The position numbers and the translations under genes were made by a program. From Phycisphaerae bacterium (GTDB lineage: Bacteria; Planctomycetota; Phycisphaerae; UBA1845; Fen-1342): a stretch of DNA of 64,000 nt. The notes beneath the pieces were generated by a model, which worked only from the letters and a program-made list of their open reading frames with translations, ran no database searches and was not told the origin of the DNA. The stretch is from the NCBI GenBank assembly GCA_963675745.2, contig CAXXWX010000006.1, forward strand, positions 32,001 through 96,000, in the 5' to 3' direction. Shown here in pieces: positions 3,675 to 19,496 of this stretch. Numbering within the stretch: position 1 is the first letter of the stretch; each line of letters opens with the position of its first letter.

Positions 3675-3700
3675 AAGCCCCGCCCGCCTGACCGTTGGCG

Positions 3701-3811
3701 CAAAAGCTGAGGATCCGAGCTCGCCGTAACTCGGACCCTCCAAGCCAGGCTGCCCGCTCTCTCGAGCGGTGACCCACAACCTTACCCGTGCATCGACTGT
3801 GCGTGGAAGGT
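3701..3811 (-). ncRNA. Riboswitch-like structured RNA with an overlapping intrinsic terminator
   Basis: P1 ACCUUCCA(3811-3804)/UGGAGGGU(3742-3735); GNRA-capped hairpin CCGCUC-GAGA-GAGCGG; 11-bp hairpin GAGGGUCCGAG/CUCGGAUCCUC followed by AGCUUUU, sharing bases with the P1 3' strand. G-U wobbles favour the minus strand. Confidence 0.5.
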
Positions 3812-4066
3812 GCATCAATTATTGAGGGAATATCCCCGGGCGATTTGTGAATCGTGCGGCGGCCGGGGGCCGGGGGTCCACCAGCGCAGAATGAAGCTGG
3901 GCGGCGGGGGACCTGCCGCGGTCCGGCAAACTGGCAAAAGCGGCCGGGGGGCGGGTTTTCCTTGACATACCGATAACGCGTATCCGATCAGGAGTAACGA
4001 TAGATCACGGTCGGCGAGCGCTGCCATTGTGCAGCGCGCGAGTTATCGGAGGTTCGGTAGCCTGAC

Positions 4067-5935
4067 ATGTCAGATCCCTGCGCTTCCCACCGCCACCCGC
4101 GGCACACATGGGCAAACCCGTGCCTGGTAGCGGCCCGAATCGGCCTGCTGGCCATCGTGGCGGCGACCCCGCTCAGTCATGCCGACGAGCCGGTCACCAC
4201 CACCCAACCAAGCGACACCTTTGAGCCGGCCGCGGAGGCCGCCAACGCCCCCAACGTGACAGTCAGCAACGTCGGACTGCTTGACGTAAATGTCCACGAC
4301 ACGCCCATCGCATCAGTGCTCGAGATGTTGAGCTACCAGGCACGCTCGAACATCGTCACGAGCACATCCGTCACCGGAAACATTTCCGCCAATCTCTACG
4401 ACGTGACCCTCGAAGCGGCCCTCGATGCCATCCTGATTCCCAACCAGCTCACCTATCGAAAGATGAACGGCGTGATCTACGTCGGGACGGTTCAAGAGAC
4501 CAATGCGAATGGACCGCTGCCACAGCCACGCGTCTTCGAGTTGAAGTATATCTCACGCGCCACGGCCGCCGCCGCCGTCGAATCCCTGCTCAGCGAGCGC
4601 GGGACTATCGCTGCCGCCGAAAGCCAGAGCAGCGGCAGCGGCAGTGGCGGTGCCGATTCCCTCTCGAGTGTCTTCGGCGAGGCCGGGGTTGATTATCTCA
4701 TCGTCATCGACACACCCGATCGCCTGAAGGCGATTGAACGCGTGATCGGCGAGATCGACGTGCGTCCCAAGCAGGTGCTGATAGAGGCAACCATCCTGCG
4801 CGCCACGCTTAACGAGGACAATCAGCTCGGCATTGACCTCACGCTGTTGAACGGGGTCGACTTCCAGGACGTTACAAGCACCAGTGACGCGGCCGCCAAC
4901 CTCCAAACCGGACAGGTCCCGCCCCGGCGCTTCGATAACACGACCTTCAACGTGAACACCGACCTGCTTGATGGGTTTCCCGGCAGCGGCTTCACCTTCG
5001 GGATTATCAAGAACAACGTGGCGGCGTTTGTGCGCGCCTTGGAGAGCGTCACCGACGTGTCCGTGCTGGCCCATCCCAAGGTCCTCGCACTGAATAAGCA
5101 CGAAGCCGAGATCATCGTCGGGCGGCGCGATGGCTATATAACCACGATGGTCACCGAGACCGCCGCGGTTCAGTCAGTTGAATTCCTCGAAACGGGCACG
5201 CAGATCCTGCTGCGCCCGGTGATCAATCCCGATGGGACCGTGCGATTGGACGTGCGCCCCAAGGACAGTAACGGCGGCCTGAACTCGTCAAACCTCCCCT
5301 TCGAGGAGACCACCGAGACCCACGTGCAACTGCTGCTCGATGATGGTCACACGGTCTTGATCGGCGGACTGTTTCGCGAGCGAACCGTCAGTTCGAAAAC
5401 ACAGGTACCCGTGCTCGGGGACGTTCCGATCCTCGGTCATCTCTTCAAGCGCTCGTCGGACCAAACCGTACGCGAAGAGGTCATCATTCTGTTGACGGTA
5501 CACGTCCTCAAGGAGACACCCGAAGAACAAGAGCAGTTCCGGGAGATCATGGAGGATATTGAACGCATCCGCGTCGGCAGCCGCCAGGGATTGATGGGCA
5601 CCGGGCGTGATCGCCTGGCGCAGGCCTTCTATCAGGAAGCGTTGTCACAAGCCGAGGCCGGCAAGTTCGACCTGGCGCTGTTGAACGCCCGCATGTCGCT
5701 GCACAACCAGCCGCGGCACTTGGGCGCATTCAAGCTCAAGGAGGAGCTGCTCGGCCGCCGCATGTGGGACGGCGGTTATTCGCGCAGCCAGACGGTTCTA
5801 CTGGATTTGCTGGACGGAGCCAGCGAGGCGACCGCCGGCGAGCCGGACGCCGGACACTTCGGCCATCCGCCGCTCGACCACCATCTGATGTCCGGGCACG
5901 CCGATGTCATTGAGAAGGGAGAGAAGTCACCATGA
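4067..5935 (+). CDS. Secretin (GspD/PilQ family) with N-terminal STN-like domain and C-terminal TPR-like extension
   Basis: IDVRPKQVLIEATI, VLAHPKVLALNKHEAEIIVG, GHTVLIGGL and VPVLGDVPILGHLFK secretin motifs. Confidence 0.93.
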   Translation: MSDPCASHRHPRHTWANPCLVAARIGLLAIVAATPLSHADEPVTTTQPSDTFEPAAEAANAPNVTVSNVGLLDVNVHDTPIASVLEMLSYQARSNIVTSTSVTGNISANLYDVTLEAALDAILIPNQLTYRKMNGVIYVGTVQETNANGPLPQPRVFELKYISRATAAAAVESLLSERGTIAAAESQSSGSGSGGADSLSSVFGEAGVDYLIVIDTPDRLKAIERVIGEIDVRPKQVLIEATILRATLNEDNQLGIDLTLLNGVDFQDVTSTSDAAANLQTGQVPPRRFDNTTFNVNTDLLDGFPGSGFTFGIIKNNVAAFVRALESVTDVSVLAHPKVLALNKHEAEIIVGRRDGYITTMVTETAAVQSVEFLETGTQILLRPVINPDGTVRLDVRPKDSNGGLNSSNLPFEETTETHVQLLLDDGHTVLIGGLFRERTVSSKTQVPVLGDVPILGHLFKRSSDQTVREEVIILLTVHVLKETPEEQEQFREIMEDIERIRVGSRQGLMGTGRDRLAQAFYQEALSQAEAGKFDLALLNARMSLHNQPRHLGAFKLKEELLGRRMWDGGYSRSQTVLLDLLDGASEATAGEPDAGHFGHPPLDHHLMSGHADVIEKGEKSP

Positions 5936-7026
5936 GATGGGCGTCTTGCGCAGCGCCGGCGGCCATGATGCTGGCCTTGAGCGTCCAATCCGGATGTCAC
6001 TCCCCCGCGACGCAGGCCACGGCACGGCAGGAGGCGGAGCGGCGCTGGAAGGTCGCCCGTGCCGACGTGAAGGCGCGCCTGGCAGCCGACCAGTTCGCCA
6101 TCGGCCGGGTTGAAGCCGCCGCCCTTCAGCTTGCCGAGGCGCAAGAGCTTGATCCGAACAACTTGTCGCTCAAGCTGATGGAGGCGCGTATCCTCCTGTC
6201 GAAAGGAGCGGCCGATCGTGCCGAGCGGATTCTGAAGACTCTGGAGTTGAAGCCCGCGCGCCAGGCGGAACGGGACTACCTGCTTGGAGTGATCCATCAG
6301 CAACGTCTGCGCTGGGAGCAAGCGGCCCAATGCTTCATCGCTGCCTGCGACCGCGATCCACACGAGGTTGCGTATCTGGCCGCCTCCGTGCAGGCGCTAC
6401 TTCAATTGGGACACGTGGCGCGCGCGCAGGAGTTGCTGGCGGCTCACGCGGATGCCATCGGCTGGACCGCCGCCTACCAGGCCGCAATGGCCGAGTGCCA
6501 CGAACAAACCGGGGACTGGGCCGAGGCGGCGAGCGCCTGGAAACGCGCATCCAGCACGCAAGAGGATCCCGTCGTGCTCGAACGCCTGGCATTGGCACAG
6601 TATCGCGCGGGACAATGGGAACGGGCGGCGGCAACGCTGCGCAGCCTCTTGCGTTTGGCAGGCGATGCTGACCAATCGTTCAACGTGCGCCTGCTGCTGG
6701 CCGAATGCCTCTTGGAGAGTGGTCAGACCATTGCCGCACGCGCCGAGCTGGAGGGGTTGCTCAAGACGGCTCCGAGCGATCCGCGCGCCTTGCACCTGCT
6801 GGCCCGCGTGCACGTCGAGGCCGGCGACCTGACGCGAGCCCTGGCAATTGTCAACGCCGGTCTCGCGACCACGCCGCACAACGTGCCTCTGCTGGAACTC
6901 GGCGCGGTTCTGGCATATCGCACTGGCGACAGCAAGCGGGCCGCGTGTATGGCCCACGCCTTGTCAGAGGCGACCGGGTCCGAACCCAACCCGATCGCCG
7001 CCCGCGTGCTTGAACTCACCAAATAA
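5932..7026 (+). CDS. TPR-repeat lipoprotein, candidate secretin pilotin
   Basis: Lipobox-like SVQSGC, multiple TPR helices, ATGA overlap with the secretin stop. Confidence 0.75.
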   Translation: MRWASCAAPAAMMLALSVQSGCHSPATQATARQEAERRWKVARADVKARLAADQFAIGRVEAAALQLAEAQELDPNNLSLKLMEARILLSKGAADRAERILKTLELKPARQAERDYLLGVIHQQRLRWEQAAQCFIAACDRDPHEVAYLAASVQALLQLGHVARAQELLAAHADAIGWTAAYQAAMAECHEQTGDWAEAASAWKRASSTQEDPVVLERLALAQYRAGQWERAAATLRSLLRLAGDADQSFNVRLLLAECLLESGQTIAARAELEGLLKTAPSDPRALHLLARVHVEAGDLTRALAIVNAGLATTPHNVPLLELGAVLAYRTGDSKRAACMAHALSEATGSEPNPIAARVLELTK

Positions 7027-7129
7027 GTGCTTGGGGGGCAGGTACTTCACCGCAAGGGAAAGCCGCGGGGCGAGCGACACCGTGTCGTGTCGATCGCCCG
7101 GCGGCCGGACCGCTGTGGACAAAAGTGCG

Positions 7130-7160
7130 GACGGGTCCGGCACCTGGTGCCGGGCCCGTC
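7130..7160. terminator. Strong hairpin between the convergent TPR and pilin genes
   Basis: GACGGGTCCGGCAC-CTG-GTGCCGGGCCCGTC, a 14-bp stem; the A4 run just to the left gives a short U-tract on the minus strand. Confidence 0.65.
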
Positions 7161-7193
7161 GGGCGGCCCTCTCACTTGGGATCAGCAAGTTTG

Positions 7194-7697
7194 CTAGTAA
7201 GTGTTGTAGGCGACGTTGGCCTCGTCCAGTTCCTCACTGTTGGCGAGAAACTCGCCGGTTGTGGGGTTGTACACCCAGCCTTCGCCGTCGGTGGTATCAA
7301 CATCCGGCGGCGAGTTTGCGCTGTCAATCAGCACGCCGGTCGGGTCGGTCGGGTTGCCCACCGGGCAGGGCGGGATGGCCAGCAGATAAGGGCCGTATTT
7401 GTGCGTTGCGTCACGGGCGCCTGCGGTGGCGCCGGTTACCGATGAGTACTTGAGCAGATGATCGCTGATGGTCCCGCCGTCATGTCCCGGGTACTTGTTG
7501 TTGTGCTCGGCCGCATACATATTGATGGCGTTGCGCATCACCGACAGGTTTCCCGAGAGGGCCGCATCGGAGGCTCCGGCGGAACCACGGCTCAAGCGTG
7601 GAATCGCCATCGCCGCCAGAATCCCGATAATCACGATCACCACAACAAGTTCGACAAGTGAGAAACCGCGCTGATTGGGGCGTTTCCGCGTGAGCAT
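7194..7697 (-). CDS. Type IV pilin / GspG-like major (pseudo)pilin 1
   Basis: Start MLTRKRPNQR then the class III cleavage/methylation site G|FSLVELVVVIVIIGILAAMAIP; YGPYL motif as in GspG. Confidence 0.9.
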   Translation of the reverse strand: MLTRKRPNQRGFSLVELVVVIVIIGILAAMAIPRLSRGSAGASDAALSGNLSVMRNAINMYAAEHNNKYPGHDGGTISDHLLKYSSVTGATAGARDATHKYGPYLLAIPPCPVGNPTDPTGVLIDSANSPPDVDTTDGEGWVYNPTTGEFLANSEELDEANVAYNTY

Positions 7698-7784
7698 TAC
7701 ACCAGTCTCCGAATGAGAGTGCCTCGTTCTTCCCGCCGACCGTTGCTGTGGTGGCTGGGACAGCATGTCTTGGTCATATGTCAG

Positions 7785-7810
7785 ATCGGTTGTCGCCAAT
7801 GGTGTCTTCA
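7785..7810 (-). promoter_or_regulatory. Sigma28-like promoter upstream of pilin 1
   Basis: Minus strand TGAAG-N15-ACCGAT. Confidence 0.5.
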
Positions 7811-7884
7811 TTAAGTATTGAGTGGATTCACGCGACGCCGCCCCGGACGGTCGGGACGTGAGCGGCCGTCGATCATATGTGGCG

Positions 7885-8430
7885 TCAGCGTCCACCGGCG
7901 CCGTCCACGTGCAGGACAACTTCGTCCTCTGACGACCGAAAAACCACGCTTTCGCGGCGAATCTGCGTCAACTTGTAACCGTCCACCACGGCCCCAAGCC
8001 GAATTACCCGGCGATCGATGATCGCCGCCGGTTCGGGACCGGCCAGCACACCATTCAGCTTGTGCTGCGCTGAAAAGAGAGTCTTCTTTGCCGCGAGCGG
8101 CTCCTCGGTTTGCCGGCGCGCGGAGATTTCCGGAGCGGGAGCCGTGGCGACAACCAACATCGTCTCCGATAACTCGAAAGGGTCACGCCGCAGCGCGCTC
8201 ATATCCAGCGGCGGCCGGTCATTCGGGCTACTCGACAGCGTGGCGATCAGAGTGTCCACGTCGATTACCGCGACTTCCGCAAGTGGTGGACCCGCATCAT
8301 CGACGGTCATGACGGCGGCATGCGCGGTGCGCGGGTGTGTGTCGCCGATGAACTGATCAACGACCCACGCGGCGACGACAATCCCCAGCCCGCCGAACAT
8401 GATTCTCTGCGATAGCGTCAGCTTCTTCAT
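7885..8430 (-). CDS. PilP/GspC-like assembly protein
   Basis: N-terminal TM, RRDPF motif and a beta-rich LNGVL...AIID...G..VDGYKL..I tail; last gene of the PilMNO run. Confidence 0.6.
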   Translation of the reverse strand: MKKLTLSQRIMFGGLGIVVAAWVVDQFIGDTHPRTAHAAVMTVDDAGPPLAEVAVIDVDTLIATLSSSPNDRPPLDMSALRRDPFELSETMLVVATAPAPEISARRQTEEPLAAKKTLFSAQHKLNGVLAGPEPAAIIDRRVIRLGAVVDGYKLTQIRRESVVFRSSEDEVVLHVDGAGGR

Positions 8431-9011
8431 GACGGGGTCCCCGATGGAGCAACCGTCGCGTCTGTCAGCAGATACAGCCGCAGGACCAGTGAAATACTGG
8501 GCGTTTGCGATTCATCATCGCCTTGACGGACGAGTGAATACTCGCGGATCGAGTGGTAAGGCTGCCGCCTGGCCAGTACATCCAGGAAACTGATCAGCGT
8601 GCGCATGTCGCCCCGTGCTTCGATGTGTACATCGGTGGCCAGATATTCATCCACCACCTCCGCGGGCCTCGGCAGCACGCTTTTGATTTCCAGCCCCACG
8701 GCGGCCGCGTGCTCGAGGACGGCGCCGAGGATGGTATTCAGATTGGCGGCGGATGGGGCGTTGCTCAGCTCCACGGCGACAACTTCACGCAGGCGGCGTG
8801 TCTCGTCGCTCAGCATCGTCAGACGCGCCGAAGTAATGTCCACGTGCGCCTGGGTGGTGGTGACGGCGTCGGCCACAGCGCGCATTTCACGCGCCTGACT
8901 CTGCTGGGGATGAACCAGCCCGACATACGTGGCGACGGCCATCACGCCGATAATCACGCAGGCCCACACATCCACGTCGTGAAATCGACGCGCGCGATGC
9001 CTGTTGCTCAT
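8427..9011 (-). CDS. pilO: PilO-like protein
   Basis: TM plus coiled coil plus ferredoxin-like domain (IEARGD...LISFLD); overlaps its neighbours by 4 bp. Confidence 0.75.
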   Translation of the reverse strand: MSNRHRARRFHDVDVWACVIIGVMAVATYVGLVHPQQSQAREMRAVADAVTTTQAHVDITSARLTMLSDETRRLREVVAVELSNAPSAANLNTILGAVLEHAAAVGLEIKSVLPRPAEVVDEYLATDVHIEARGDMRTLISFLDVLARRQPYHSIREYSLVRQGDDESQTPSISLVLRLYLLTDATVAPSGTPS

Positions 9012-9586
9012 GGCGCCACCTCCTCCAGTGGATCACACTGAAGTTGAAACGCGACGGCCACACCCGCGCGATACGGCTCACGTGTGGCACGCACGAGATT
9101 GACTTGCCGCCATTCGGATGTGTCTTGCATCGCGCGCATCATGCTGTCGAGTTCATGGTGATCCAGAGCGTGGCCGGTAACCGTTGCCGAGCGCGGCTGG
9201 GTACCGTCCGTGCCGCGTGCCATGGACACCCCGCGAACCTGGTCGAGGACGACACCCTCGGGCGTCAACTGCGCCAAGGTCAACAGACGCTGTGGCACCG
9301 GGTGCGTGCGGCGCAGACCTATCAAGGCGCCGGCCGCGGTGACGATTTCGTCATGGTCCGCCTGCGCGCTGCTGAGCTGCGCCGCCCTGTCCGCCTGGGT
9401 CTGCTGCGCCTCGGATAGTCGTGTCATCAATTGCCGCGCGGTGTGCAGCGTGTGCAGATAGTGTATCCCGGCGCAGGCCATCAGCGCACACATGCCAAGC
9501 CCCACACCCAGCCACATCTTCATGTGTGTTCGGCGGGACTGGGCGTCGAGGCAGTCAATCGGAATGAGGTTAACCACGTCCATCAC
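9008..9586 (-). CDS. pilN: PilN-like protein
   Basis: N-terminal VNLIP PilM-binding motif, TM, coiled coil, P.GV.L and TGHA motifs. Confidence 0.8.
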   Translation of the reverse strand: MMDVVNLIPIDCLDAQSRRTHMKMWLGVGLGMCALMACAGIHYLHTLHTARQLMTRLSEAQQTQADRAAQLSSAQADHDEIVTAAGALIGLRRTHPVPQRLLTLAQLTPEGVVLDQVRGVSMARGTDGTQPRSATVTGHALDHHELDSMMRAMQDTSEWRQVNLVRATREPYRAGVAVAFQLQCDPLEEVAP

Positions 9587-10689
9587 CGCGCCTCCAGATC
9601 CTGAATAGCGCCACCAAGGGCGGCGACGGCCTCAGTACCGATTGTGCGACCGCATACACCGGCCTCGACGGCAATGGGCGTGGTGTTGATGTCAAGCTCG
9701 CGTTGCATGTGTTCGCACAGCCCCGACAGATTCGCGCCCCCGCCGGCTAGAAACACGGCACCGACGCTGCACTCCGGATAGCTCTCCAGCACGTACGTGA
9801 GGCACAGCCGCGTGTCACGGACCAGGTGCTCGCTGGGTTCACGCAACGCCTTGTATACCGCCGTGGAGACATCCTCCGCGTTTTCCACCGCCATCGCACC
9901 GGGGCCGTTCGGCGCGGCGACGGCGGCGGCCAGTTCGCTGCCGCGCTTGAGCTGCTCGGCCTGGTCGTATGGCATATCGAATGCCTCGGCGATACGACGC
10001 GTACAGTGGTGTGCCCCGGTAGCCAGCGTACGGATGTACACCGGCACCTCGCCGACCAGAACAGTGATCACGGCGCGCCGCCAGCCAACGTCGACAACCG
10101 CCCAGACGTCACTCGCTTCGGGGTGATACTGTCGCATGGCGGCTTGCGCCAACGCCCGCGGTGTTACGTTGATGCGCTGCAAGAGAAACCCACGCTCGGC
10201 AAACTCGCCCACCCACCGCCGGGCGGCGGATGTCGGCAGGGCCACCGCCATGACGTTGAGTCCCTCGCGATGGCGCGGCGGCAGGGGCCAGTAGCGCACC
10301 TCCATATCGTTCGCCTCGGTACGCGTCTCGCGCGCGATTTCCCAGGCGAGAGCCTCCTCGATCTTCGCGGGGGCATAACTGAGGATCTTGGCCGGCAGCC
10401 GCACGGCATGGAAAGTCACCTCGGGCGGCGACAGCACCAGCGTGGCGCGCCGCCCGGCGAACCGGCCCTGAGTTGCCAGACGCGTCAGGCGATCCACATT
10501 CAGCTCGAGCTTGTGCGACTCGTCCGTTGACGGGTCGGGACGCAGTTCGATATTGAGTGCGTCATGCACCGCGAATCCGCCGCGGCGGCGCTTGACCTGG
10601 CAGGCGCGTATACTCGCCGCGCCCACGTCAAAGGCGATCGCCGATGTTCCTGATAGTGACCACGCGCACATGGCAGTTGATCTCCGCAA
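9583..10689 (-). CDS. pilM: PilM actin-like assembly protein
   Basis: IAFDVGAASIR, VVDVG and FLAGGGA actin-fold motifs. Confidence 0.85.
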   Translation of the reverse strand: MRRSTAMCAWSLSGTSAIAFDVGAASIRACQVKRRRGGFAVHDALNIELRPDPSTDESHKLELNVDRLTRLATQGRFAGRRATLVLSPPEVTFHAVRLPAKILSYAPAKIEEALAWEIARETRTEANDMEVRYWPLPPRHREGLNVMAVALPTSAARRWVGEFAERGFLLQRINVTPRALAQAAMRQYHPEASDVWAVVDVGWRRAVITVLVGEVPVYIRTLATGAHHCTRRIAEAFDMPYDQAEQLKRGSELAAAVAAPNGPGAMAVENAEDVSTAVYKALREPSEHLVRDTRLCLTYVLESYPECSVGAVFLAGGGANLSGLCEHMQRELDINTTPIAVEAGVCGRTIGTEAVAALGGAIQDLEAR

Positions 10690-10703
10690 CTGGCGCTCAG
10701 CGC

Positions 10704-11921
10704 TTAACCGGCCCCGGCCGCGATATCGAACAGCGGCAGAAACAGTGACATTGCCACCAGACCGACCACCACACCCATCACCGCCAGCATCAGCGGTTCA
10801 ACCAGGCGTGTGATGCCGGCGACCAATTGGGTGTTCTCGTCGTCGACCCACTGCGATACGAAATCGACCGCCTCGGAAAGCCGCCCGTTTTCTTCCCCCG
10901 TTGTGATCGCGGAAGCAATGATCGGGTCCACGTATTCAGAGTCAGCCAGCACGGCGCCGATCGATCCACCGGATGAGATGGACTCACGCACCTTGTCAAG
11001 CAGGCTTACAAAAACCTGGTTCGAGGCGGCGCCGCGCGACTGTTCAATCGCGTCCAGCAGCGGGACATTTGAGCGCAGCAGGGCCGCCCAGACCCGCAGC
11101 ACCTGGCCGGCCTGGAGGCGGCTCAGCAGGTGGCCGACCAGTGGCAGGCTTAGCAGCAATGGATCAAGGTGTTGACGGATCGCGGGTCGGCGCAGCGTAA
11201 CAATGATGATCACGAGGGCCAATGCGAACAGTATCACCAGCACCAACCAATACGCCCGCAGGAGATCTGAGGCGGCGAACATGACCTCGGTACTGAAGGG
11301 CAGCGCGGTCTGCAAACTCTCAAACAACATGCGAAAGCGGGGCACGACAAACCCGATCATGAGTCCGATCACGCCGATACACATCGTGCACAACACGACC
11401 GGGTAAAGCAGCGCGCCAATCACCGCCTTGCGCGTCTGGCGTTGCCGGTATGTAAGAGTCGATAACCTGTCAAAAGACTGCGGCAGAGTCGCCGTCGCCT
11501 CACCGGCGGCGATCATGCTGCAAAACACCGGGGAGAACACATCGGGGTGGTCACGCATCACTTCGGTGAGCGTCCCGCCGCCTTCAACGTGGTCGTGGAT
11601 ACTGCGGATCAGCGAGCGGAAAGCCGGCCTCTGAATCGGTTTGCTGACGGCATCGAGGGCCGGTACCAGGGCGGTGCCGGACTCGAGCAGCATCTTCATC
11701 TGCCGGGCGAACAGCAGTATGTCCTGTGTTCGCGGTCCGCGTTTGAGGCCGAGCGCGGGTGCATCGCCCCCCGCATCCCCTTTGCCGGCCTGTTCCAGAC
11801 GCATCACGAGCAAGCCGCGTTGGCGCAGCTCGTCCGCCGCGTCCTGCTGGCTGTCAGCATTGATCGCGTCGGTGACCAGTCCGCCACCATGGCTCATCGC
11901 TTCGTACTTGAACTGCGCCAT
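10704..11921 (-). CDS. pilC: PilC/GspF platform protein
   Basis: F.YEA...G start, AGEATATL, LLYP, TGEENGRL and LVEP motifs. Confidence 0.92.
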   Translation of the reverse strand: MAQFKYEAMSHGGGLVTDAINADSQQDAADELRQRGLLVMRLEQAGKGDAGGDAPALGLKRGPRTQDILLFARQMKMLLESGTALVPALDAVSKPIQRPAFRSLIRSIHDHVEGGGTLTEVMRDHPDVFSPVFCSMIAAGEATATLPQSFDRLSTLTYRQRQTRKAVIGALLYPVVLCTMCIGVIGLMIGFVVPRFRMLFESLQTALPFSTEVMFAASDLLRAYWLVLVILFALALVIIIVTLRRPAIRQHLDPLLLSLPLVGHLLSRLQAGQVLRVWAALLRSNVPLLDAIEQSRGAASNQVFVSLLDKVRESISSGGSIGAVLADSEYVDPIIASAITTGEENGRLSEAVDFVSQWVDDENTQLVAGITRLVEPLMLAVMGVVVGLVAMSLFLPLFDIAAGAG

Positions 11922-11933
11922 CGTTCCTCTGCG

Positions 11934-13688
11934 CTATGCAATTGCCGGGATCGGTTGCTGCACCTCGGCCCGTGTGCGGTTTTCAGCTTCGGCGTGCGTC
12001 ACGCGCAGCACTTCCTCCAACGTTGAGCGGCCGTCGATGACCAACTGCAAGCCTTCCTCGCGCAGCGGCCGCCAGCCGTGCCGGCGAACGACCTGGATCA
12101 GCCCGGACTCATCTGTCAGCGAATGGATCGCGGTGCGTACCTCGTCACTGACTTCGATGATTTCGAAAATTCCCAGGCGGCCGCGATATCCGCTGTCGTG
12201 GCAGTGTTTGCAACCCTCACCCTTGTAGCACACGCGATCGGGCTCATCCGCCCAGCCGGCGTCGCGCAATACCGCCTCGGACGGGTAGTACGACGTGCGA
12301 CATTGCGGGCAGATCGTGCGGGCCAGGCGTTGCGCAACAACCCCATTGAAGGCCGAGGCCAACAGGTAGCTCTCGATACCCATATCCGACAGGCGCACAA
12401 ACGCCCCGGGCGCGTTGTTGGTGTGCAGCGTCGACATCACCAGGTGACCGGTCAGCGCGGCCTGGATCGCAACGCGCGCGGTGGGCTCATCGCGTATTTC
12501 GCCGACCATCACCACATCGGGATCCTGTCGCAGAATCGAGCGCAAGGCGCGCGCGAAGGTCATCCCGATCGTGTCGTTGACCTGGATCTGGTTGATCAGA
12601 TCGAGCTGATACTCCACCGGGTCCTCGATGGTCACTATGTTCTTCTCGGGGGTGGCGAGTAGATCAAGAACCGAGTAGAGCGTGGTGGTCTTGCCGCTGC
12701 CGGTGGGACCGGTGACCAGCACAATGCCGTGCGGCTTCTGGATGATGCGCCGGAACGATTCGAACTGGTCAGCGCTCATCCCCAACATATCAAGCGAGAC
12801 CCGCAGCGCCGACTTATCGAGGATTCGCAAGACGATCTTCTCACCAACCAGCGTCGGCATCGAGGAAACGCGCAGATCGACGTCGCGCCCCTCGGCGACC
12901 ACGTGAACACGCCCTTCCTGGGGCAGACGCCGCTCGGCAATGTCCATCTTGCCAATGACCTTAATGCGCGAGATCACGGCGGCGTGCATCCCGGGCGGCG
13001 CGCTCATCAGCTCGCGCAGGCGCCCATCAATACGATAGCGAATGCGCGTGGATGACTTGGTCGGCTCAACGTGAATGTCACTGGCCCCGTCGCGAATCGC
13101 CGTCAGCACGGCGAGGTTGACCAGGTTGACCACCGGGCTGCCCTCGACCATGCGAGTCAGCTCGTGGGCCGGCTGTTCGTCAACCGTCTCGTTCTCGATG
13201 ACTTCGACGTTGGCCTCGGTCAGCGAGACGAGAAACGAGTCTATATCGACCTGCTCTCCGAGGTACTTCTCCTGGAACTCCTCGATGTTGCTCGGCAGGC
13301 TGAGCACCGAATTGATCTCACAGCCGGTAAGCCGCGTGAGCTGATCAATCGCGCGCAGCGACTGCGGTTCGGTCATGGCGACCGTCAGCCGATTGCCGAC
13401 CTTGAAGAGCGGCAGCGCCTTGAGGCGGGCGGCTTCCTCGTAGCTGAGCAGCCGGGCGACCTCGGGGTCGATCAGACCATGCCGCAGATAACAGGCGCGC
13501 ACGTGCAGGTGGTTGGCCAGCGCGCCCAACAGGGCCGTCGGGGAGAGCAGCTTCAGTTCGACGAGCGTCTCGCCCAGGCGCTTGTTATCACTGCCCTGGT
13601 GCTTGAGGGCGCGCTGCAGGTCGGCCTCGTCGATCAGGCCTTGTTCGATCAGCGTATTGCCAAGTTTGTTGCCGCGTTTCAGGCTCAT
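11934..13688 (-). CDS. pilB: PilB/GspE assembly ATPase with N-terminal MshEN c-di-GMP-binding domain
   Basis: GPTGSGKTT, TIEDPVE, LRQDPDVVMVGEIRD, GHLVMSTLH, CPQC..CKHC. N-terminus KLGNTLIEQGLIDEADLQRALKHQ-x5-RLGETLVELKLL. Start placed at ATG 13688. Confidence 0.93.
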   Translation of the reverse strand: MSLKRGNKLGNTLIEQGLIDEADLQRALKHQGSDNKRLGETLVELKLLSPTALLGALANHLHVRACYLRHGLIDPEVARLLSYEEAARLKALPLFKVGNRLTVAMTEPQSLRAIDQLTRLTGCEINSVLSLPSNIEEFQEKYLGEQVDIDSFLVSLTEANVEVIENETVDEQPAHELTRMVEGSPVVNLVNLAVLTAIRDGASDIHVEPTKSSTRIRYRIDGRLRELMSAPPGMHAAVISRIKVIGKMDIAERRLPQEGRVHVVAEGRDVDLRVSSMPTLVGEKIVLRILDKSALRVSLDMLGMSADQFESFRRIIQKPHGIVLVTGPTGSGKTTTLYSVLDLLATPEKNIVTIEDPVEYQLDLINQIQVNDTIGMTFARALRSILRQDPDVVMVGEIRDEPTARVAIQAALTGHLVMSTLHTNNAPGAFVRLSDMGIESYLLASAFNGVVAQRLARTICPQCRTSYYPSEAVLRDAGWADEPDRVCYKGEGCKHCHDSGYRGRLGIFEIIEVSDEVRTAIHSLTDESGLIQVVRRHGWRPLREEGLQLVIDGRSTLEEVLRVTHAEAENRTRAEVQQPIPAIA

Positions 13689-13692
13689 CAAT

Positions 13693-14028
13693 CTACTGCT
13701 TGTAGCTGCGGATCGCGTTGTCGACCGTATCGAACACATCCAGATGCGTGAGCACGTCGGTGAGAGCAAGTGCCTCGCGACAGGTTTCATCAAGCTGGGC
13801 CAGGCGCGGGCGGTTAAACGCATCAACCGTGCCGCAGATATCCAGCAGCGTCTCAATGCCGCCACTGTCAACAAAGGGCACCTGAGTCATGTCGAGCACG
13901 ACGCGCCCTTCCTTGGCGGACACTGTTTCGTCAACGGTCGCCCGAAAGTCGCCCAGCTCGTCGCGCGTCAGCGGCCCGTGCGGCACCACCACGGCGACCG
14001 TGCCATGCGACTGAACGTCGATCTTCAT
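13693..14028 (-). CDS. STAS-domain protein (anti-sigma-factor antagonist type)
   Basis: VVLDMTQVPFVDSGGI with the phosphorylatable Ser. Confidence 0.88.
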   Translation of the reverse strand: MKIDVQSHGTVAVVVPHGPLTRDELGDFRATVDETVSAKEGRVVLDMTQVPFVDSGGIETLLDICGTVDAFNRPRLAQLDETCREALALTDVLTHLDVFDTVDNAIRSYKQ

Positions 14029-15299
14029 CAGTCCGCTCCCGCCACAAGTTGGTCTTCGGTGGGCGCTGCGATTCGCTCACCGCGACGGCGCGCCGACTCT
14101 ATCGCGTCAAAGGCCTCCACCAGCAGCATGTCAAACGGCTTCGCGCCGGCGATGCCGGCGACCAGGCCGAGGCGCACTTGCACGTTTCCAGTACCCTCGC
14201 CGGCGCCGGCGATGGCCTGCTCGACACCCCTCAGCAGTTTCTGGGCGATGATCACGCCGAGCCCGCGATCAAGTCGACGCAGCACCATCACGAACCGATC
14301 GTCGGAGAAGCGCCCCACAATGTCATCGCTGCGAACGCGCTTCGACAGTTCACGGCCCGTGTGCTCAACCAGGGCGTCACGCGACGGCCAGAACCCGTGA
14401 TCATCAAGTCCGCGCAGACCTTCCAGGGCCAGCACCGCGACAACAACGGGCTCCTCATCTCCCTCTGGATCAGCCATGATCGTGGCGGCCTGTTCAAAGA
14501 AATCTTCGCGTGTCAATACTCCCGACGCCTTGTCGGTCACGCGGGCACGATCAAGCTCGGTGTCACGCTGTACGTTCAGCCAGAACACACTGATGATCGA
14601 CAATACCGTTTCACACAGATGGCGCTCATGGGCGCTCTTCTGCGGCAGGGCCGCGATCGTGATCAGGCCGACCGTCGTGTTGCGCGCGCGAACCGGCCAG
14701 ACAACCTGCCACTGCCGGTCCGGCTCTGTCGGCGCGTCCGTGTGTAAGATCGGCCTCCCGGTGCGTGCGACCATGCCGAGCACATCATCGTGCAGCTCGG
14801 CACAACACTCGCCGCCGTCGTCCGTATCAGAACGCCCGCTGTCCAATGCCGACAACGGGCAAAAGACGCCGTCGCGATTGCCCGGCCGCAGACAACGCGC
14901 TTTCGTGGCCTGCACGTAGTTGTCCAGCGTTTCCCTGACGAACTGGTCAAACGCCGGCCAGACATGCTGATCACTCGGCGCTTCGGCGTGCCACTTGGAG
15001 AAGTCCGCCACCAGACGCCGCGCAAGCGCGTTCTCGTCGATGGTGGCGTCATCGGCCGGATCACTGAGCGGCAGGGGTGCCGGCAACACCGAGCGCGACT
15101 CGCCTGAGAGCCGTGCGTTGGCGATTGCGAAGACGCCCGCGCCGAGTATTGCGTATCCCGCCACGGCGCCGCCGGTCAATATCAGCAGGTCAAAGGACGG
15201 CCACCATGTCGGCAGACTGAGTACGTGATAGGATGCCAGGATCAGCACGCCGCCGCCGATCAACCACAGTCCCGTGCCGGCTCTGCGCGAGCTTCTCAT
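14028..15299 (-). CDS. Membrane protein with GAF-like and degenerate GGDEF domain (I-site intact)
   Basis: Two N-terminal TMs; TDKASGVLTR; RSDD-IVGRF-SDDRF in place of RxxD-x5-GGDEF. Confidence 0.8.
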   Translation of the reverse strand: MRSSRRAGTGLWLIGGGVLILASYHVLSLPTWWPSFDLLILTGGAVAGYAILGAGVFAIANARLSGESRSVLPAPLPLSDPADDATIDENALARRLVADFSKWHAEAPSDQHVWPAFDQFVRETLDNYVQATKARCLRPGNRDGVFCPLSALDSGRSDTDDGGECCAELHDDVLGMVARTGRPILHTDAPTEPDRQWQVVWPVRARNTTVGLITIAALPQKSAHERHLCETVLSIISVFWLNVQRDTELDRARVTDKASGVLTREDFFEQAATIMADPEGDEEPVVVAVLALEGLRGLDDHGFWPSRDALVEHTGRELSKRVRSDDIVGRFSDDRFVMVLRRLDRGLGVIIAQKLLRGVEQAIAGAGEGTGNVQVRLGLVAGIAGAKPFDMLLVEAFDAIESARRRGERIAAPTEDQLVAGAD

Positions 15300-16555
15300 G
15301 GTTCGCCCCCTTCCGTTGACGGGAACATCTCCGCATACATGTCGGGATGTTCGGCGCGGAATCGCGCGAATGTCGCCATGAAGGCGTCCACAATGAGCGG
15401 ATCGAGCGTGTTACCGGCGAGCTCCTTTACGATTTCCAGCGACCGTTCGACGGAGAATGCCTGCCGGTACGAACGTGTCGAGCTGAGCGCATCGAACACG
15501 TCGACCACGTGGATGATGCTGGCGAACTGCGTGATCTCTGAACGTGACAGCCCATCGGGATAGCCGGAGCCATCCGGGTTCTCGTGATGATGCAGAACGC
15601 CGTCGAGGATCGGCTGCAGGCTCTCGATCGGTTTGAGAATCTCGTATCCCATGCGCGGGTGCTTCTTGATCTCATCGTATTCTTCGGTCGAGAGTTTCCC
15701 GGGCTTGTTGAGCACGTCCTCGCGGACGCCAATCTTCCCAATGTCGTGGAGCAGGCCCGACCACTCGATCTGGTCGAGCTGCTCGGCGGGCAGGCCGAGA
15801 TGCACGCCGGTCAGACGTGACATGAACCCGACACGTTCGGAGTGGCCGGAAGTGTAGTGGTCCTTCTTGTCGATCGCCGAGACCAATGCGCGTGTGGCCT
15901 CGATAGACATGCGCCGCAACTGCGTGTGCAATTGACTGTTGTTGATAAGGTTGCCGCCAAACGTCAGCAGCGCTTCCGCCATTTGCAGATCGCCGGAAAC
16001 AAACTCGGGCGCATCGGGTGGTCGCGTGGCCAGCACCAGGTCGTACGGCTCGGTCAGCCGCGGCAGCGGACAGATCAGGCAGTGGCCGTCCGGCATCTGG
16101 CGCACCGTGATCTTCTGGTGCTGAAAGGCATCGTGCATGACCGCTTGCCAGCCGTCACTGTATGTCTCGTGCCAGGTACCATCGACCACCCTGCCAGCTT
16201 GCACATCGTGGCGTCGCAGCGCGCCGTCGTGACTGACCGTGTCAAGCGTGCTCACCCTAAGCAGCTTGGCGATGCGGCGGAGGAGCAACCGCTCGAGTTC
16301 TTCCGGCCGTGTGACTCCTGCGATCTCCTTCGTGAAGTCGAACAAGAGGCTCAGTTGCTCGTAATTCTTGAGCACTTCCTCGGCCAATTGAACATTCTCA
16401 CTCAGGGCACCTTGCAGTTCGGCTGCGGTTGTCGCCGCGGCATTCAGCGCGCCAAACACCGCCGGAGGGCCCGGTGCTTGGCTCTCTGATACCGCCTCAT
16501 TCGCCGGCTGGGAGCACGGAATTGGTTCGAATGGGTCCATATGCATTGTCCTCAA
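15296..16555 (-). CDS. HD-GYP cyclic-dinucleotide phosphodiesterase with GAF-like N-terminus
   Basis: YTSGHSERV, LHDIGKIG, HPRMG, HHHENPDGSGYP, DVFDAL and RSYR motifs. Confidence 0.92.
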   Translation of the reverse strand: MRTMHMDPFEPIPCSQPANEAVSESQAPGPPAVFGALNAAATTAAELQGALSENVQLAEEVLKNYEQLSLLFDFTKEIAGVTRPEELERLLLRRIAKLLRVSTLDTVSHDGALRRHDVQAGRVVDGTWHETYSDGWQAVMHDAFQHQKITVRQMPDGHCLICPLPRLTEPYDLVLATRPPDAPEFVSGDLQMAEALLTFGGNLINNSQLHTQLRRMSIEATRALVSAIDKKDHYTSGHSERVGFMSRLTGVHLGLPAEQLDQIEWSGLLHDIGKIGVREDVLNKPGKLSTEEYDEIKKHPRMGYEILKPIESLQPILDGVLHHHENPDGSGYPDGLSRSEITQFASIIHVVDVFDALSSTRSYRQAFSVERSLEIVKELAGNTLDPLIVDAFMATFARFRAEHPDMYAEMFPSTEGGEP

Positions 16556-16586
16556 AACAACTGCAAACAGCGGGCGCAGGCACCAC

Positions 16587-16973
16587 CTACGGCAGCGCCT
16601 GCTCCGTCGAATCCGCTTCCATCTGGCTGATCAGATCCGCCAGGTTGGTCGGACTGAACGGCTTGGGTATCACGTGTACACCGCGAGTAGCGAGCGTCTC
16701 GCCGATTTCCCGGTGGTCCCAACGATTGGTCAGCACGACGATGCCGCGCGGTTGCACGGGATCATTACGTAGCGCTTCGAGCAGCTCGATCCCGTCCATC
16801 ACCGGCATGTTGACATCGGTAACCAGGATGTCGGGTATGTGCGTCCGGATGAGCTCCAGGGCCAGTTGCCCGTTCCACGCTTCGAAAACCGTATGTCCCT
16901 GGCGCGTGAGCCACAGCGAAATCACGCGCAGGATATGAGCGTCATCCTCGGCAATCACAATTCGGCAGGCCAT
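16587..16973 (-). CDS. Stand-alone response regulator receiver
   Basis: IAEDD, VTDVNMP and PKPF motifs. Confidence 0.9.
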   Translation of the reverse strand: MACRIVIAEDDAHILRVISLWLTRQGHTVFEAWNGQLALELIRTHIPDILVTDVNMPVMDGIELLEALRNDPVQPRGIVVLTNRWDHREIGETLATRGVHVIPKPFSPTNLADLISQMEADSTEQALP

Positions 16974-16982
16974 GCCAGTCTC

Positions 16983-18797
16983 CTACTTGCGCGCCTCTGC
17001 TTCCACCGGCAATTCGATCGTGAACGTCGAGCCCTTGTCCGGCTCGCTGTCGAGCGTGATATCGCCCCCGTGCAGCCGGGCCACCTCGCGCGCAATTGCC
17101 AGTCCCAATCCGGTGCCCTTGATCCCACGCACCTCTTCGCTGTCGGCGCGATAGAACTTGTCAAACACGCGTTCGTGGTCTCCCGGATCGATGCCGATGC
17201 CGGTGTCGCTCACGGCGATTTCGACACAGCGCTCCTGTGCCACCATCACCACCTCCACTCCGCCACCGGCGCGCGTGTACTTGATCGCATTGCCAATCAG
17301 GTTGTTCAGTAGAACCGCCAGCCGCTTCTTGTCGCCACGCACCGGCGGCACCTTCGGCGGGAGCTTCAAACGCAGCTCAACCTGCTTCTCGTCCGCCGCG
17401 GCCAGGTTGTCCTGTACCATCTCACGCAACAGACGCGCAATGTCGATGTTGTTCCACTCGATGCGCACCTTGCCGATCTCGAGCTGAGACAGGCTGAGAA
17501 TGTCCTCTATCAGCGCCGACAGCCGACGTGTCTCGCTGATGATTACGTTGTAACACTCCTTGCGCGTCTGCTCGTCATCAAAGTCGGGTTGACTGAGCGT
17601 CTCAGCGTAGGCCTGAATGTTAGTCAACGGCGTGCGCAGTTCGTGCGTAACGTGATAGAGGAAACTATCCTGGATTCGGCGGCTTTCAAACAGCGGGCTG
17701 ACATCCGAGACGAACAGCACCGGCTCATCGTCGTCGCCGGCCGCCGAACGCAGCATTTGCAGGCGAATCGTCATCGGGTGCTGCTCATCCCCGATGCGTC
17801 TGTCGAGGGCGTGCGCCTGGCTGCCGCTGGGACGTGCTTCCAGCAAAGGTTCCGCACTCTCCGCGCCGATCACGTCCTCCAGCGGACGCCCCACAATCCC
17901 GTCCGCTCCCCCACCAAGTAGCTGTGTCGCGCAGGCATTGGCGTACTTGACCTGCCGGTCATTGTTGACACGCACCACACCAACAGGCAGGCGATCCAAC
18001 AGCCGCCGTAACGAACGACTCTCGAAACGCGAAAGCGCGTCTTCCGGCGACGCGCCCGGACTCACCTGCTGTTCCAGTCGCGCCGCCTGCTGAATCAGTT
18101 GGTTCCAGCCATGCGCCGTCTCCCCCATCGAGTCACTCAGCCCCAACGCCAATAGCTCGCGCTCGATGCCGAGGGCATAGCGGTGCAGGTTGTCCTTGAC
18201 CGCTTCAATCGGTCGCACATGAGCGCGCAGATGGCGGCACAGCACCAGGTACAGCAACAAGGCAGAGAACAGCACCAGCGCTGTCATACCGATCAGAGTC
18301 GGGCGGTAGTCCCCCGCCCGCGCCAACGCCGGCCGGACCACTGCGGTCCCCAACGGCGCGCCGTCGGTACCGAGAACTGTGGCGCGGTATGCCTGATTCG
18401 GCGTTTCGTCTGATGCTGGCGCGGCGGCGGCCTGATCAGCCGTCGGTGCCGGTGGCCACGCGAAACGCACCGACCCCGCCGGGTCTGACCAGGTGATTGA
18501 TTGGAACGACCCCAGCGCGCCCAGGGCCCGATTCACATCGGCGGGCGGCTCGCCCTCGGCGGCGGCGGCCCCGAGAACCGCCGCTACCGCTTCAGCGAGC
18601 AGTTGGCCGCGCGCGGATTCGTGCAACTTCGCTTGTCGTGCCAGCATCAGGTTGGCCGCCAGCGCAACGGAGAGCGCGCCGGCGATAATGATCGCCCCAA
18701 TACCGACACCAACCGTGTCGGGGATTACTCGACCCCACTTCTGCTCGCGACGCGGCATGTTATCGGCGGCAGGTTCCTGATCAGACGCAATGGTCAT
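16983..18797 (-). CDS. Membrane PAS sensor histidine kinase
   Basis: Two TMs, PAS (LPVGVVRVN..YAN), HELRTPL, NLIGNAIKY, DTGIGI and GTGLGL. Confidence 0.93.
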   Translation of the reverse strand: MTIASDQEPAADNMPRREQKWGRVIPDTVGVGIGAIIIAGALSVALAANLMLARQAKLHESARGQLLAEAVAAVLGAAAAEGEPPADVNRALGALGSFQSITWSDPAGSVRFAWPPAPTADQAAAAPASDETPNQAYRATVLGTDGAPLGTAVVRPALARAGDYRPTLIGMTALVLFSALLLYLVLCRHLRAHVRPIEAVKDNLHRYALGIERELLALGLSDSMGETAHGWNQLIQQAARLEQQVSPGASPEDALSRFESRSLRRLLDRLPVGVVRVNNDRQVKYANACATQLLGGGADGIVGRPLEDVIGAESAEPLLEARPSGSQAHALDRRIGDEQHPMTIRLQMLRSAAGDDDEPVLFVSDVSPLFESRRIQDSFLYHVTHELRTPLTNIQAYAETLSQPDFDDEQTRKECYNVIISETRRLSALIEDILSLSQLEIGKVRIEWNNIDIARLLREMVQDNLAAADEKQVELRLKLPPKVPPVRGDKKRLAVLLNNLIGNAIKYTRAGGGVEVVMVAQERCVEIAVSDTGIGIDPGDHERVFDKFYRADSEEVRGIKGTGLGLAIAREVARLHGGDITLDSEPDKGSTFTIELPVEAEARK

Positions 18798-18851
18798 CGG
18801 CGCACCTTTCCCGTGCTTTCATACGCTGGCGCGAATACACACATGGGGGAT

Positions 18852-18877
18852 ATCGGAGCAGGTACGTCCATGCTTAA
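18852..18877 (-). promoter_or_regulatory. Sigma28-like promoter upstream of the kinase-to-pilP operon
   Basis: Minus strand TTAAG-N15-TCCGATA. Confidence 0.55.
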
Positions 18878-18941
18878 AGAGTGTCGCGCGACGGTCGGAA
18901 TGTGACGAATGTGCGCGTCCGGCGATTCGAGGCCGCCCGTC

Positions 18942-19496
18942 TCACCCGCCGGGGAGTGGAATCGCGCCACCACCATCCAACTGCTGGACTTCAGCGCCGC
19001 CGAGCAACACGCCCAAGTCCGCTGAGGCATCATTCAGCAGAAACTCGCCGGTTGTCGGGTTATAGACCCAACCACAGGGTTCGAGCGACCGCGCAATCGG
19101 TGGACTGGATGTGGAGTCGATCAGCACATCCGCGCTGCCGGCGTTTGCCCCAAGCGGTGCCGGTGGGATGGCGTGCAGGTATGGTCCGTATATGTAAGCG
19201 CCGCCACGCGTGTGCGCTGTGTCGCCAGCGCGCGTCGAGTATTGGGTGAGCTGGTCCGCGAATTCCTCAGCCGTCGGCCCTGGGAAGGCGTTCTCGTGTT
19301 CCAGGGCGTAGTACATGATCGCCGCCCGCACCGCCGACAGATCGCGGGCGGCGGCCGAGATCGACGCCCCCTGGCTTCCGCGGCTGAGTCGCGGAATCGC
19401 GATCGCCGCCAGCAGACCTATAATCACAATGACTACGATCAACTCGACCAGCGAGAAACCACGCCTGGCTGTACAGATAAGCTCAAACCGCCGCAT
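18942..19496 (-). CDS. Type IV pilin / GspG-like (pseudo)pilin 2, paralog of pilin 1
   Basis: RRG|FSLVELIVVIVIIGLLAAIAIPRLSRG, YGPYL and GWVYNPTTGEF shared with pilin 1. Confidence 0.9.
   Translation of the reverse strand: MRRFELICTARRGFSLVELIVVIVIIGLLAAIAIPRLSRGSQGASISAAARDLSAVRAAIMYYALEHENAFPGPTAEEFADQLTQYSTRAGDTAHTRGGAYIYGPYLHAIPPAPLGANAGSADVLIDSTSSPPIARSLEPCGWVYNPTTGEFLLNDASADLGVLLGGAEVQQLDGGGAIPLPGG

Follow-up and report, generated by a model that had tools for sequence, protein, structure and literature searches.

A probable type IVa-like filament locus of a Phycisphaerae bacterium with c-di-GMP signalling genes and a predicted STAS adaptor on the motor PilB

Positions 4067..19496 of a 64,000-nucleotide stretch of DNA from a Phycisphaerae bacterium (contig CAXXWX010000006.1 of assembly GCA_963675745.2; hereafter the window) hold a locus that is best read as encoding a type IVa-like filament gated by cyclic di-GMP (c-di-GMP), the motor of which carries a STAS adaptor. 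The source genome is a 5.2-Mb assembly that is 91% complete. On the minus strand, genes for a histidine kinase, a receiver, an HD-GYP protein, a degenerate GGDEF protein and a STAS protein precede those for the extension ATPase PilB, PilC, PilM, PilN, PilO, a PilP-like protein and a pilin. A second pilin gene lies upstream, and a secretin–TPR gene pair is convergent with the operon, with 167 bp between the stops. This gene content, with its positions and order, had been proposed from the sequence alone (the sequence-only reading) and is borne out in full, with agreeing matches in Pfam and NCBIfam, as are the two flanking pilin paralogues, which are 53–56% identical, and the facing secretin–TPR operon.

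In the reading that we regard as reasonably probable, the filament is type IVa-like, PilB's N-terminal domain is controlled by STAS on its ND1 subdomain and by c-di-GMP on its MshEN motif, and the kinase, receiver and HD-GYP protein tune c-di-GMP. To judge by gene order alone, a signal would act through the kinase and the stand-alone receiver on the HD-GYP protein, which would set the local c-di-GMP. Its readers, as the motifs suggest, would be the MshEN site of PilB and, within this order of bacteria, the degenerate GGDEF protein. The dedicated STAS protein is predicted to bind ND1 beside MshEN with Ser55 at the centre of the contact and, by analogy with other STAS proteins, would be set free when a kinase from outside the locus phosphorylates Ser55. 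Gene content, motifs, conservation and co-occurrence are observed; we infer nucleotide binding, phosphotransfer and the direction of effect.

Counts across relatives are descriptions and not tests, because kin are not independent. The STAS gene immediately precedes that of PilB in 99 of 101 locus records, which are partly redundant and of which the other two are contig ends, and in 29/29 loci from outside the order in a phylum sample. The string of degenerate GGDEF, STAS and PilB occurs in 53 of the 62 named loci, and four of the remaining nine are contig ends. STAS follows the degenerate GGDEF gene in 56 of the 62, with the six exceptions comprising one contig end, four satellite cassettes and a partial gene that no STAS gene follows. 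Of those 56 loci, 53 have PilB after STAS, and the remaining three end with the contig. The gene order is retained at 30–60% protein identity across families. The sequence-only reading had expected the signalling genes to be conserved beside the pil genes in relatives, and the 53 loci with the complete string put this conservation far beyond chance.

Signalling genes were scored in 80 non-redundant loci with STAS before PilB, each with at least 5.5 kb upstream. A kinase is present in 80, a receiver in 69, an HD-GYP gene in 64 and a GGDEF gene in 55 (the kinase and HD-GYP totals are automated counts of 79 and 63, corrected for a missed kinase in L167 and a missed HD-GYP in L203). Five of the 55 GGDEF genes encode intact cyclases, so that a dead GGDEF is present in at most 50 of the 80 loci. 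Since the kinase accompanies STAS and PilB in all 80, these three form the fixed core, and HD-GYP and the dead GGDEF are accessory. The emphasis of the sequence-only reading on the latter two is not sustained, and STAS, which it listed as one item among many, is the most tightly linked part.

Of the 62 records of relatives found with a profile of the degenerate GGDEF protein, 60 are labelled Phycisphaerae or Planctomycetota/Planctomycetales; the remaining two, both short contigs binned with other phyla, are probably misbinned. The degenerate GGDEF family is present in 130 of the 201 genomes of the order sample, the own genome included, in 0/42 genomes of family f2, and in 0/400 other genomes of the phylum sample, a floor set by a strict first search. 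The STAS family, nearly always in single copy, is present in 180 of the 201 genomes of the order; in the phylum sample it occurs in 20 of 28 same-class genomes and 8 of 372 others. A phylum-wide cassette is rejected on these counts; the STAS family is centred on the class, with a few other families. A plasmid collection gave no STAS match, and an atlas search returned generic STAS clusters only.

STAS and this PilB subfamily are absent together. Of 21 STAS-negative genomes in the order, 20 were tested with an ND1 query, and 17 of them gave no subfamily-level PilB match; the other three comprise two contig ends and a STAS that carries an insertion. Satellite cassettes, in which a kinase or receiver gene, HD-GYP and degenerate GGDEF are followed by a pilin-like gene, lack STAS and PilB (L119, L121, L122, L130, L055, L056, L058), as does L053, a further satellite copy. 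One genome with a satellite cassette, G021, is 92% complete and gave no STAS or subfamily PilB match. Pilin genes are retained behind the signalling modules that have been duplicated; the module thus stays in their company even when it is copied away from the machine. In L053, which lies in the own genome (G000 C19, 6397–8491), the GGDEF paralogue has extra membrane helices and no RxxD and is followed by a pilin paralogue with an atypical leader. Irregular copies occur elsewhere: L060 (G015) is eroded or frameshifted, without PilB–PilO and with broken GGDEF and STAS genes; HD-GYP is split in L046 (G033); and in L077, L090 and L103 the PilM–PilN or PilB–PilC frames are joined without a stop, which may reflect in-frame overlap or true fusions.

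Ser55 is the sole invariant column of the STAS family (73/73) and stands in a DSxG phospho-site context, which aligns with TM1442 and is the phospho-serine feature of anti-anti-sigma proteins of the SpoIIAA/RsbV type. A scan of the window locus alone revealed no linked anti-sigma kinase, PP2C or sigma factor. The complex of PilB(1–568) with STAS was predicted from 73 paired alignment rows, together with three controls with unrelated partners. It scored 0.74, and the best of the three controls 0.00; the runs share at least 80% of contacts, and the pLDDT (predicted local distance difference test) of the partner is at least 82. Among solved complexes, 116 of 157 reach the mark applied, against 2 of 215 mismatched pairs, counts that hold only roughly with own alignments. 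STAS is predicted to dock on the ND1 subdomain through Ser55, with PilB residues 64–77, 94–102, 126 and 128 facing STAS residues 22, 51–62 and 82–92, and with F95 and D74 of PilB in contact with S55. PilB D74 and F95 and STAS S55 are each conserved in 73/73 sequences, and STAS D54 and T90 in 72/73; the four other PilB proteins of the genome lack the RHGL patch of the predicted interface. Among the top 30 covarying pairs between PilB(1–200) and STAS, four fall in the predicted interface sets, with 0.39 expected, at an effective number of sequences of 47; the calculation uses the same alignments as the complex model and ignores phylogeny, and is therefore not counted as independent. There is no STAS–PilB entry among the solved structures listed as matches. 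STAS–PilB fusions were found neither among proteins of 213–2000 amino acids in a weak search, in which two matches of 231–234 amino acids contained STAS only, nor in the Pfam columns of 120 listed PilB relatives. A related PilB is recorded from Fontivita pretiosa.

The predicted STAS contacts fall on the PilB surface that is used by PilZ in Xanthomonas. Residues F95, V97, T102 and N126 of PilB align with F101, R103, F108 and E132 of X. citri PilB (PilB chain of 7LKM; the numbering relies on an offset of ten inferred from the 12–163 construct and checked against residue letters). These four X. citri residues are listed at the PilZ interface, and the F101A/F108A double mutant loses PilZ (PMC8389850). 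Independently of the complex model, the slot before the motor gene is taken by PilZ in a sister locus that the genome carries on contig C11 and by STAS here; the secretins of the two loci are 41% identical, and the PilZ gene of the sister locus overlaps the start of PilB by 4 bp. The sister locus (L063, G000 C11:22000-41900, 2528–13744) consists of secretin, TPR, a small Tyr/Asp-rich open reading frame, PilZ, PilB, PilC, an ExeA-like AAA gene and pilins; its PilZ has the RxxxR and NxSxxG motifs, and its PilB has no passing MshEN motif.

The motifs of the kinase, receiver and HD-GYP protein are intact. Kinase residue H385, with ExxT and the ATP-binding boxes, is conserved in 82 sequences, and receiver residues D53, T82 and K104 in 27 sequences. 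The HD-GYP protein keeps HD, HHExxDGxGYP, KPG and RxYR, the motif set expected of an HD-GYP phosphodiesterase, of which RxYR is the c-di-GMP specificity motif (10.1101/2021.11.05.467447). Cyclic GMP-AMP as the currency in place of c-di-GMP is rejected, since Asp is retained at the guanine-binding position of the genome's three intact cyclases and RxYR is present in the HD-GYP protein. The 53-residue MshEN motif of PilB scores 55.9 bits on NF053729 against a cut-off of 38. It comprises two RLGxxLxxxGxxxxxxLxxxLxxQ motifs with a 5-residue spacer, as defined in PMC5013675; the Leu/Gly core is near-invariant and the first Gln is kept.

The degenerate GGDEF protein is modelled as a pair of membrane helices with a GAF and a GGDEF domain (pLDDT 83.5), with fold matches to GGDEF at Z about 21 and to GAF at Z about 13. 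Its active loop is dead and variable, reading SDDRF in 52, DGSRF in 19 and ADDRF in 15 of 150 family representatives, and SDDRF in this locus; of the features of diguanylate cyclases, the GG(D/E)EF loop is lacking here and Asp at the first metal position in the 150 representatives. The candidate I-site motif RxxD is kept five residues before the loop in 143/150 representatives, and a second conserved RRxD follows the loop; RxxD is mentioned in PMC4624772. In the distant lineages f30/f63, the same slot holds a membrane GAF–GGDEF protein with intact GGEEF in 7/7 loci checked, and source, sink and receptor motif are therefore in one operon there. On the PilB tree, from which topology alone was used, loci without GGDEF lie within GGDEF-bearing clades at several separate places (L186, L199, L201, L203, L205, L202/L204), which suggests repeated loss. 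By its sequences, the slot appears to house an accessory module in the membrane: distant lineages have an active cyclase there, this order has a dead candidate receptor of RxxD type, and others have lost it. PelD-type degenerate GGDEF receptors combine transmembrane helices, GAF and a dead GGDEF with RxxD, and belong to a polysaccharide operon. The protein described here is like them in this architecture and unlike PelD in its place in a filament operon; PelD is not among its listed fold matches, which excludes nothing.

Contrary to the sequence-only reading, the circuit is not self-contained: an active cyclase, a serine kinase and phosphatase for STAS, PilT and prepilin peptidase all lie outside the locus. 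The genome encodes three intact cyclases, four HD-GYP proteins, and three RsbW-like, seven SpoIIE and eight STAS proteins, and at 91% completeness it gave no EAL match; none of its intact cyclases, serine kinases or phosphatases is located in the locus. PilT and prepilin peptidase are absent from the locus, with five PilT matches over cut-off elsewhere and a PilD-type gene at C19. The two receptors proposed in the same reading, the motor and a membrane effector, do carry their motifs; however, the GGDEF effector is dispensable, PilB has Lys for Arg9, and four PilB proteins of the genome pass the MshEN motif.

Type IVa pilus systems are characterized by PilB, PilC, PilM/N/O, a secretin, the PilP lipoprotein, PilT, minor pilins and PilD. 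Here PilB, PilC, PilM/N/O and the secretin are present with Pfam scores over cut-off, NCBIfam PilB reaching 593 bits, below its cut-off of 676. There is no minor-pilin set between 4067 and 19496, and pilin paralogues lie at C19 and C21. An MSHA pilus, marked by the secretin MshL, the AAA protein MshM and the order mshN-mshE-mshG, is at odds with the MshL score of 123 bits against a cut-off of 250, with the lack of an AAA gene in the locus, and with STAS, not a TPR gene, preceding the ATPase. A type II secretion system that builds a short pseudopilus in place of a surface pilus, under identical control logic, is a possible if doubtful alternative. The pilin matches GspG best (44.7 bits against a cut-off of 88.9), the platform matches GspF best, and there is no PilT in cis. 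The folds nearest to the model of the downstream pilin (pLDDT 91) are EpsG at Z 6.7 (root-mean-square deviation 3.4, 96 aligned) and PulG at Z 5.8, values that, being under 8, are not discriminating. By contrast, the GspE/F/G/D profiles all score under their curated cut-offs, a full-length PilM stands in place of GspL with separate PilN and PilO, the secretin is of PilQ type with an STN domain, and the locus has no GspH-K set; furthermore, relatives from f2 and f30 have a PilT-like gene between PilB and PilC (L171, L196-L198). PilMNO, the PilQ-type secretin and the PilT-like genes in cis in some relatives favour the type IVa assignment, whereas the pilin leans to GspG. The genome contains at least six filament ATPase loci (including C11, C26 and two on C27) and five PilT-family genes, and a Tad/Flp pilus locus with Flp, A24 peptidase, CpaB, secretin, AAA_31, CpaF and TadB lies just left of the window (L211, G000 C6:16000-33000, 4741–14823).

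STAS might act on PilB at all times as a chaperone or stabiliser, in the way of MlaB on MlaF or of PilZ when it folds the PilB N-domain, with a structural serine and no phospho-switch. Such a role would suit a cassette without a cognate serine kinase or phosphatase; moreover, Thr52 of MlaB is needed, yet is not known to be phosphorylated (PMC7367683), and X. citri PilB12-163 folds upon PilZ binding (PMC8389850). We consider it unlikely in view of the invariance of Ser55, its canonical DSxG context, the RsbW-like and SpoIIE proteins of the genome, and the kinase gene, which never leaves the STAS–PilB pair. It is highly improbable that STAS has the kinase or the GGDEF protein as its main partner and that its contact with PilB is an artefact of the modelling: loci that have lost GGDEF retain STAS, satellites that have GGDEF but no PilB lack it, and unrelated partners scored 0.00 on PilB. 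What speaks for such a partner is that the kinase gene directly abuts STAS in several lineages (L164-L170, L175, L178, L204) and that phosphorylated HsbA binds the cyclase HsbD (PMC5085249); an additional contact beside that with PilB is possible. The signalling genes could be merely co-transcribed with the machine, with c-di-GMP turnover being cell-wide and the motor not gated. HD-GYP, receiver and GGDEF are indeed movable, Lys replaces Arg9 in the MshEN motif, and in the absence of an EAL match in the 91% complete genome the four HD-GYP proteins may act globally. The preservation of gene order between diverged families, the union of source, sink and receptor motif in f30/f63, and the pilin gene kept behind duplicated signalling modules make this improbable.

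Several observations weigh against the c-di-GMP-gated filament with a STAS-bearing motor that we favour. The kinship of the relatives inflates the conservation counts. HD-GYP and receiver are movable or lost, and 9 of the 80 loci have a kinase alone on the same strand within 5.5 kb; in three genomes that lack HD-GYP in cis, a strong orthologue is encoded at another site (E 1e-84 to 2e-89), but genome G028 has no clear one (best E 6.5e-44 over residues 184–393). Both predicted faces are already binding faces in solved structures, the STAS helix face in SpoIIAA and MlaB complexes and PilB ND1 in 7LKM, and the score may therefore partly reflect likeness. The cassette has no serine kinase or PP2C, and the RsbW-like genes at C19 and C26 adjoin STAS genes of their own. 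In the degenerate GGDEF family, the secondary I-site position is K or Q (96 and 40 of 150) and not R. Its orthology to the intact f30/f63 cyclases was rejected after a GAF-only test, and descent from them is unsupported: their GAF parts score 0.4–8.8 bits on the family profile, below the 19.3 of an unrelated control. At position 8 of PilB, equivalent to Arg9 of MshE, 45 of 73 sequences have Lys, as here, 16 have Arg and 10 have Gln. Because the R9A substitution cuts c-di-GMP binding by MshE by 83% (PMC4624772), binding by this motor is likely, not certain. An extension of the favoured reading is put forward tentatively, as clearly less probable than its core. A partner-switching module would have been rewired from sigma-factor control to the motor, so that unphosphorylated STAS clamps ND1, phospho-STAS is freed for the GGDEF-slot protein or the kinase, c-di-GMP on MshEN serves as the second input of an AND gate, and satellites supply the one machine with alternative sensors and pilins.

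In the favoured reading, the locus is a functional analogue of the PdeK-PdeR-FimX-PilZ-PilB system of Xanthomonas built from other parts. It is not a member of that type because its adaptor, receptor and phosphodiesterase have other folds: the adaptor is STAS and not PilZ, and there is no EAL match in the genome for a GGDEF-EAL protein such as FimX. In Xanthomonas (PMC8389850, PMC11656802) the chain runs, as it would here, from a sensor kinase through a receiver-controlled c-di-GMP phosphodiesterase and a degenerate-GGDEF protein to a small adaptor on PilB ND1, and the four PilZ-interface residues align with predicted STAS contacts. By contrast, HD-GYP with a separate receiver here stands against REC-EAL there, a membrane GAF–GGDEF protein against FimX and STAS against PilZ; the regulators are not homologous, all genes here are in one operon with the machine, and PilB keeps an MshEN motif that X. 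citri PilB lacks. With the MshEN ATPases, which include MshE of Vibrio cholerae, PilF of Thermus and PilB of Myxococcus (PMC5013675, PMC4624772), PilB shares the tandem 24-residue motif with 5-residue spacer and a gapless alignment to 5HTL; it differs from them in Lys for Arg9 in most members, in the lack of an MshM-type AAA gene, and in the dedicated STAS and signalling genes that precede the ATPase.

Other STAS proteins offer partial parallels. MlaB binds its ATPase, MlaF, through Thr52, the equivalent of Ser55; a phosphomimic weakens this binding, and phosphorylation breaks partner binding in other STAS proteins (PMC7367683). A conserved phospho-site residue thus lies at the centre of a STAS–ATPase interface in MlaB–MlaF, as is predicted here; however, MlaF belongs to an ABC transporter and not to a secretion machine, MlaB is a STAS protein of reduced length, and no kinase or c-di-GMP genes are linked to it. 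HsbA–HsbD of Pseudomonas similarly links a phosphorylatable anti-anti-sigma STAS to a GGDEF protein and pilus output (PMC5085249), but HsbA binds the cyclase, has its own kinase/phosphatase HsbR and makes no direct PilB contact, whereas the STAS protein here tracks PilB and not the GGDEF gene. The known cofactors of PilB are PilZ, FimX, CpiA and phage peptides, and a 2024 review of them contains neither 'STAS' nor 'HD-GYP' (PMC11656802).

The features of the locus are collected in Table 1.

Table 1 Genes of the filament locus, in window coordinates
Feature	Position	Strand	Evidence
Secretin (STN, Secretin_N, Secretin; PilQ-like)	4067..5935	+	Pfam; best NCBIfam TIGR02515 PilQ, 199 bits, below cut-off
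TPR lipoprotein, probable secretin pilotin (putative role)	5932..7026	+	TPR Pfam matches; N-terminal ...GC motif
Major pilin/pseudopilin, downstream copy, 167 amino acids	7194..7697	-	N_methyl, 40 bits
PilP/GspC-like protein	7885..8430	-	Weak GspC_delta match, E 0.009; position conserved among relatives
PilO-like	8427..9011	-	Pfam PilO, 22.6 bits, barely above cut-off
PilN-like	9008..9586	-	Pfam PilN, 29.9 bits
PilM	9583..10689	-	Pfam PilM_2, 65.6 bits
PilC/GspF platform	10704..11921	-	Pfam T2SSF, two domains
PilB extension ATPase, 584 amino acids	11934..13688	-	T2SSE; MshEN c-di-GMP motif (residues 8-60); family-specific ND1 patch (R69-P75, F95, V97, T102), predicted STAS-binding
STAS protein with Ser55 (DSxG); predicted PilB adaptor	13693..14028	-	Pfam STAS; complex prediction
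Membrane-anchored GAF + degenerate GGDEF, two transmembrane helices, RxxD I-site motif, dead A-site	14028..15299	-	GGDEF, 33 bits
Predicted HD-GYP phosphodiesterase: coiled coil + GAF-like + HD-GYP	15296..16555	-	Pfam HD_5, 111 bits; start probably 16540
Single-domain receiver (D53, T82, K104)	16587..16973	-	REC family match
Membrane histidine kinase, two transmembrane helices, PAS, HisKA (H385, ExxT), HATPase_c	16983..18797	-	Pfam
Second pilin, upstream copy	18942..19496	-	N_methyl

The genes are tightly spaced, with 9 bp between kinase and receiver, overlaps of 4 bp between HD-GYP and GGDEF and of 1 bp between GGDEF and STAS, and gaps of 4 bp to PilB, 12 bp to PilC and 14 bp to PilM, followed by three overlaps of 4 bp. 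The receiver–HD-GYP gap is 31 bp to a TTG or 46 bp to the ATG at 16540, which has the better-spaced Shine-Dalgarno sequence. The start of PilB has been corrected from 13874 to the ATG at 13688, 4 bp past the STAS stop, and that of the downstream pilin to 7697. The pilins stand apart from the operon by 144 bp (upstream copy) and 187 bp (downstream copy); among the related loci compared, the upstream copy was found only here and in one same-genus genome (L031), consistent with a genus-level duplication. In many relatives a secretin gene goes with the cassette, lying upstream of it in some and convergent with it in others. A relaxed lipobox pattern is present in 19/24 homologues of the TPR protein, and the PilP/GspC-like frame has a hydrophobic N-terminal segment. 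At window positions 1–30000, a search of Rfam to E 1 detected neither a riboswitch nor any other structured RNA, and scans for promoters and terminators did not exceed chance (2 against 3.2 and 8 against 11.0). Two tandem genes directly upstream of the secretin, at 696–2597 (+, true start further in) and 2655–3674 (+), encode paralogous exported proteins that are helical, of unassigned family and 39% identical; a third copy lies elsewhere on C6. A regulator with REC and XRE-type helix-turn-helix domains (663–1268, -) lies between the Tad locus and the filament locus and is a possible further kinase target. A small open reading frame with a lipoprotein-like signal (19656–19994, -) lies upstream of the first pilin and has no match in Pfam or the related loci.

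No description of the cassette was found in the open literature, subscription papers and supplements not being covered, including the MshEN tables of PMC5013675, which may list such operons. Four findings are new here: the joint loss of STAS and its PilB subfamily, the placing of the predicted STAS interface on the surface that PilZ uses, the sister locus with PilZ, and the intact cyclases that fill the GGDEF slot in distant lineages. If true, the docking of a STAS adaptor on the motor would be an undescribed on/off control of pilus-building machines; one motor surface would have been recruited twice by unrelated folds, PilZ and STAS, and Ser/Thr partner switching would be tied directly to type IV filament assembly. 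PilB 1–165 and the 111-residue STAS protein form a small soluble two-protein system for how the PilB N-domain controls the motor. The cassette provides a first handle on c-di-GMP output in Phycisphaerae, a mostly uncultured planctomycete group.

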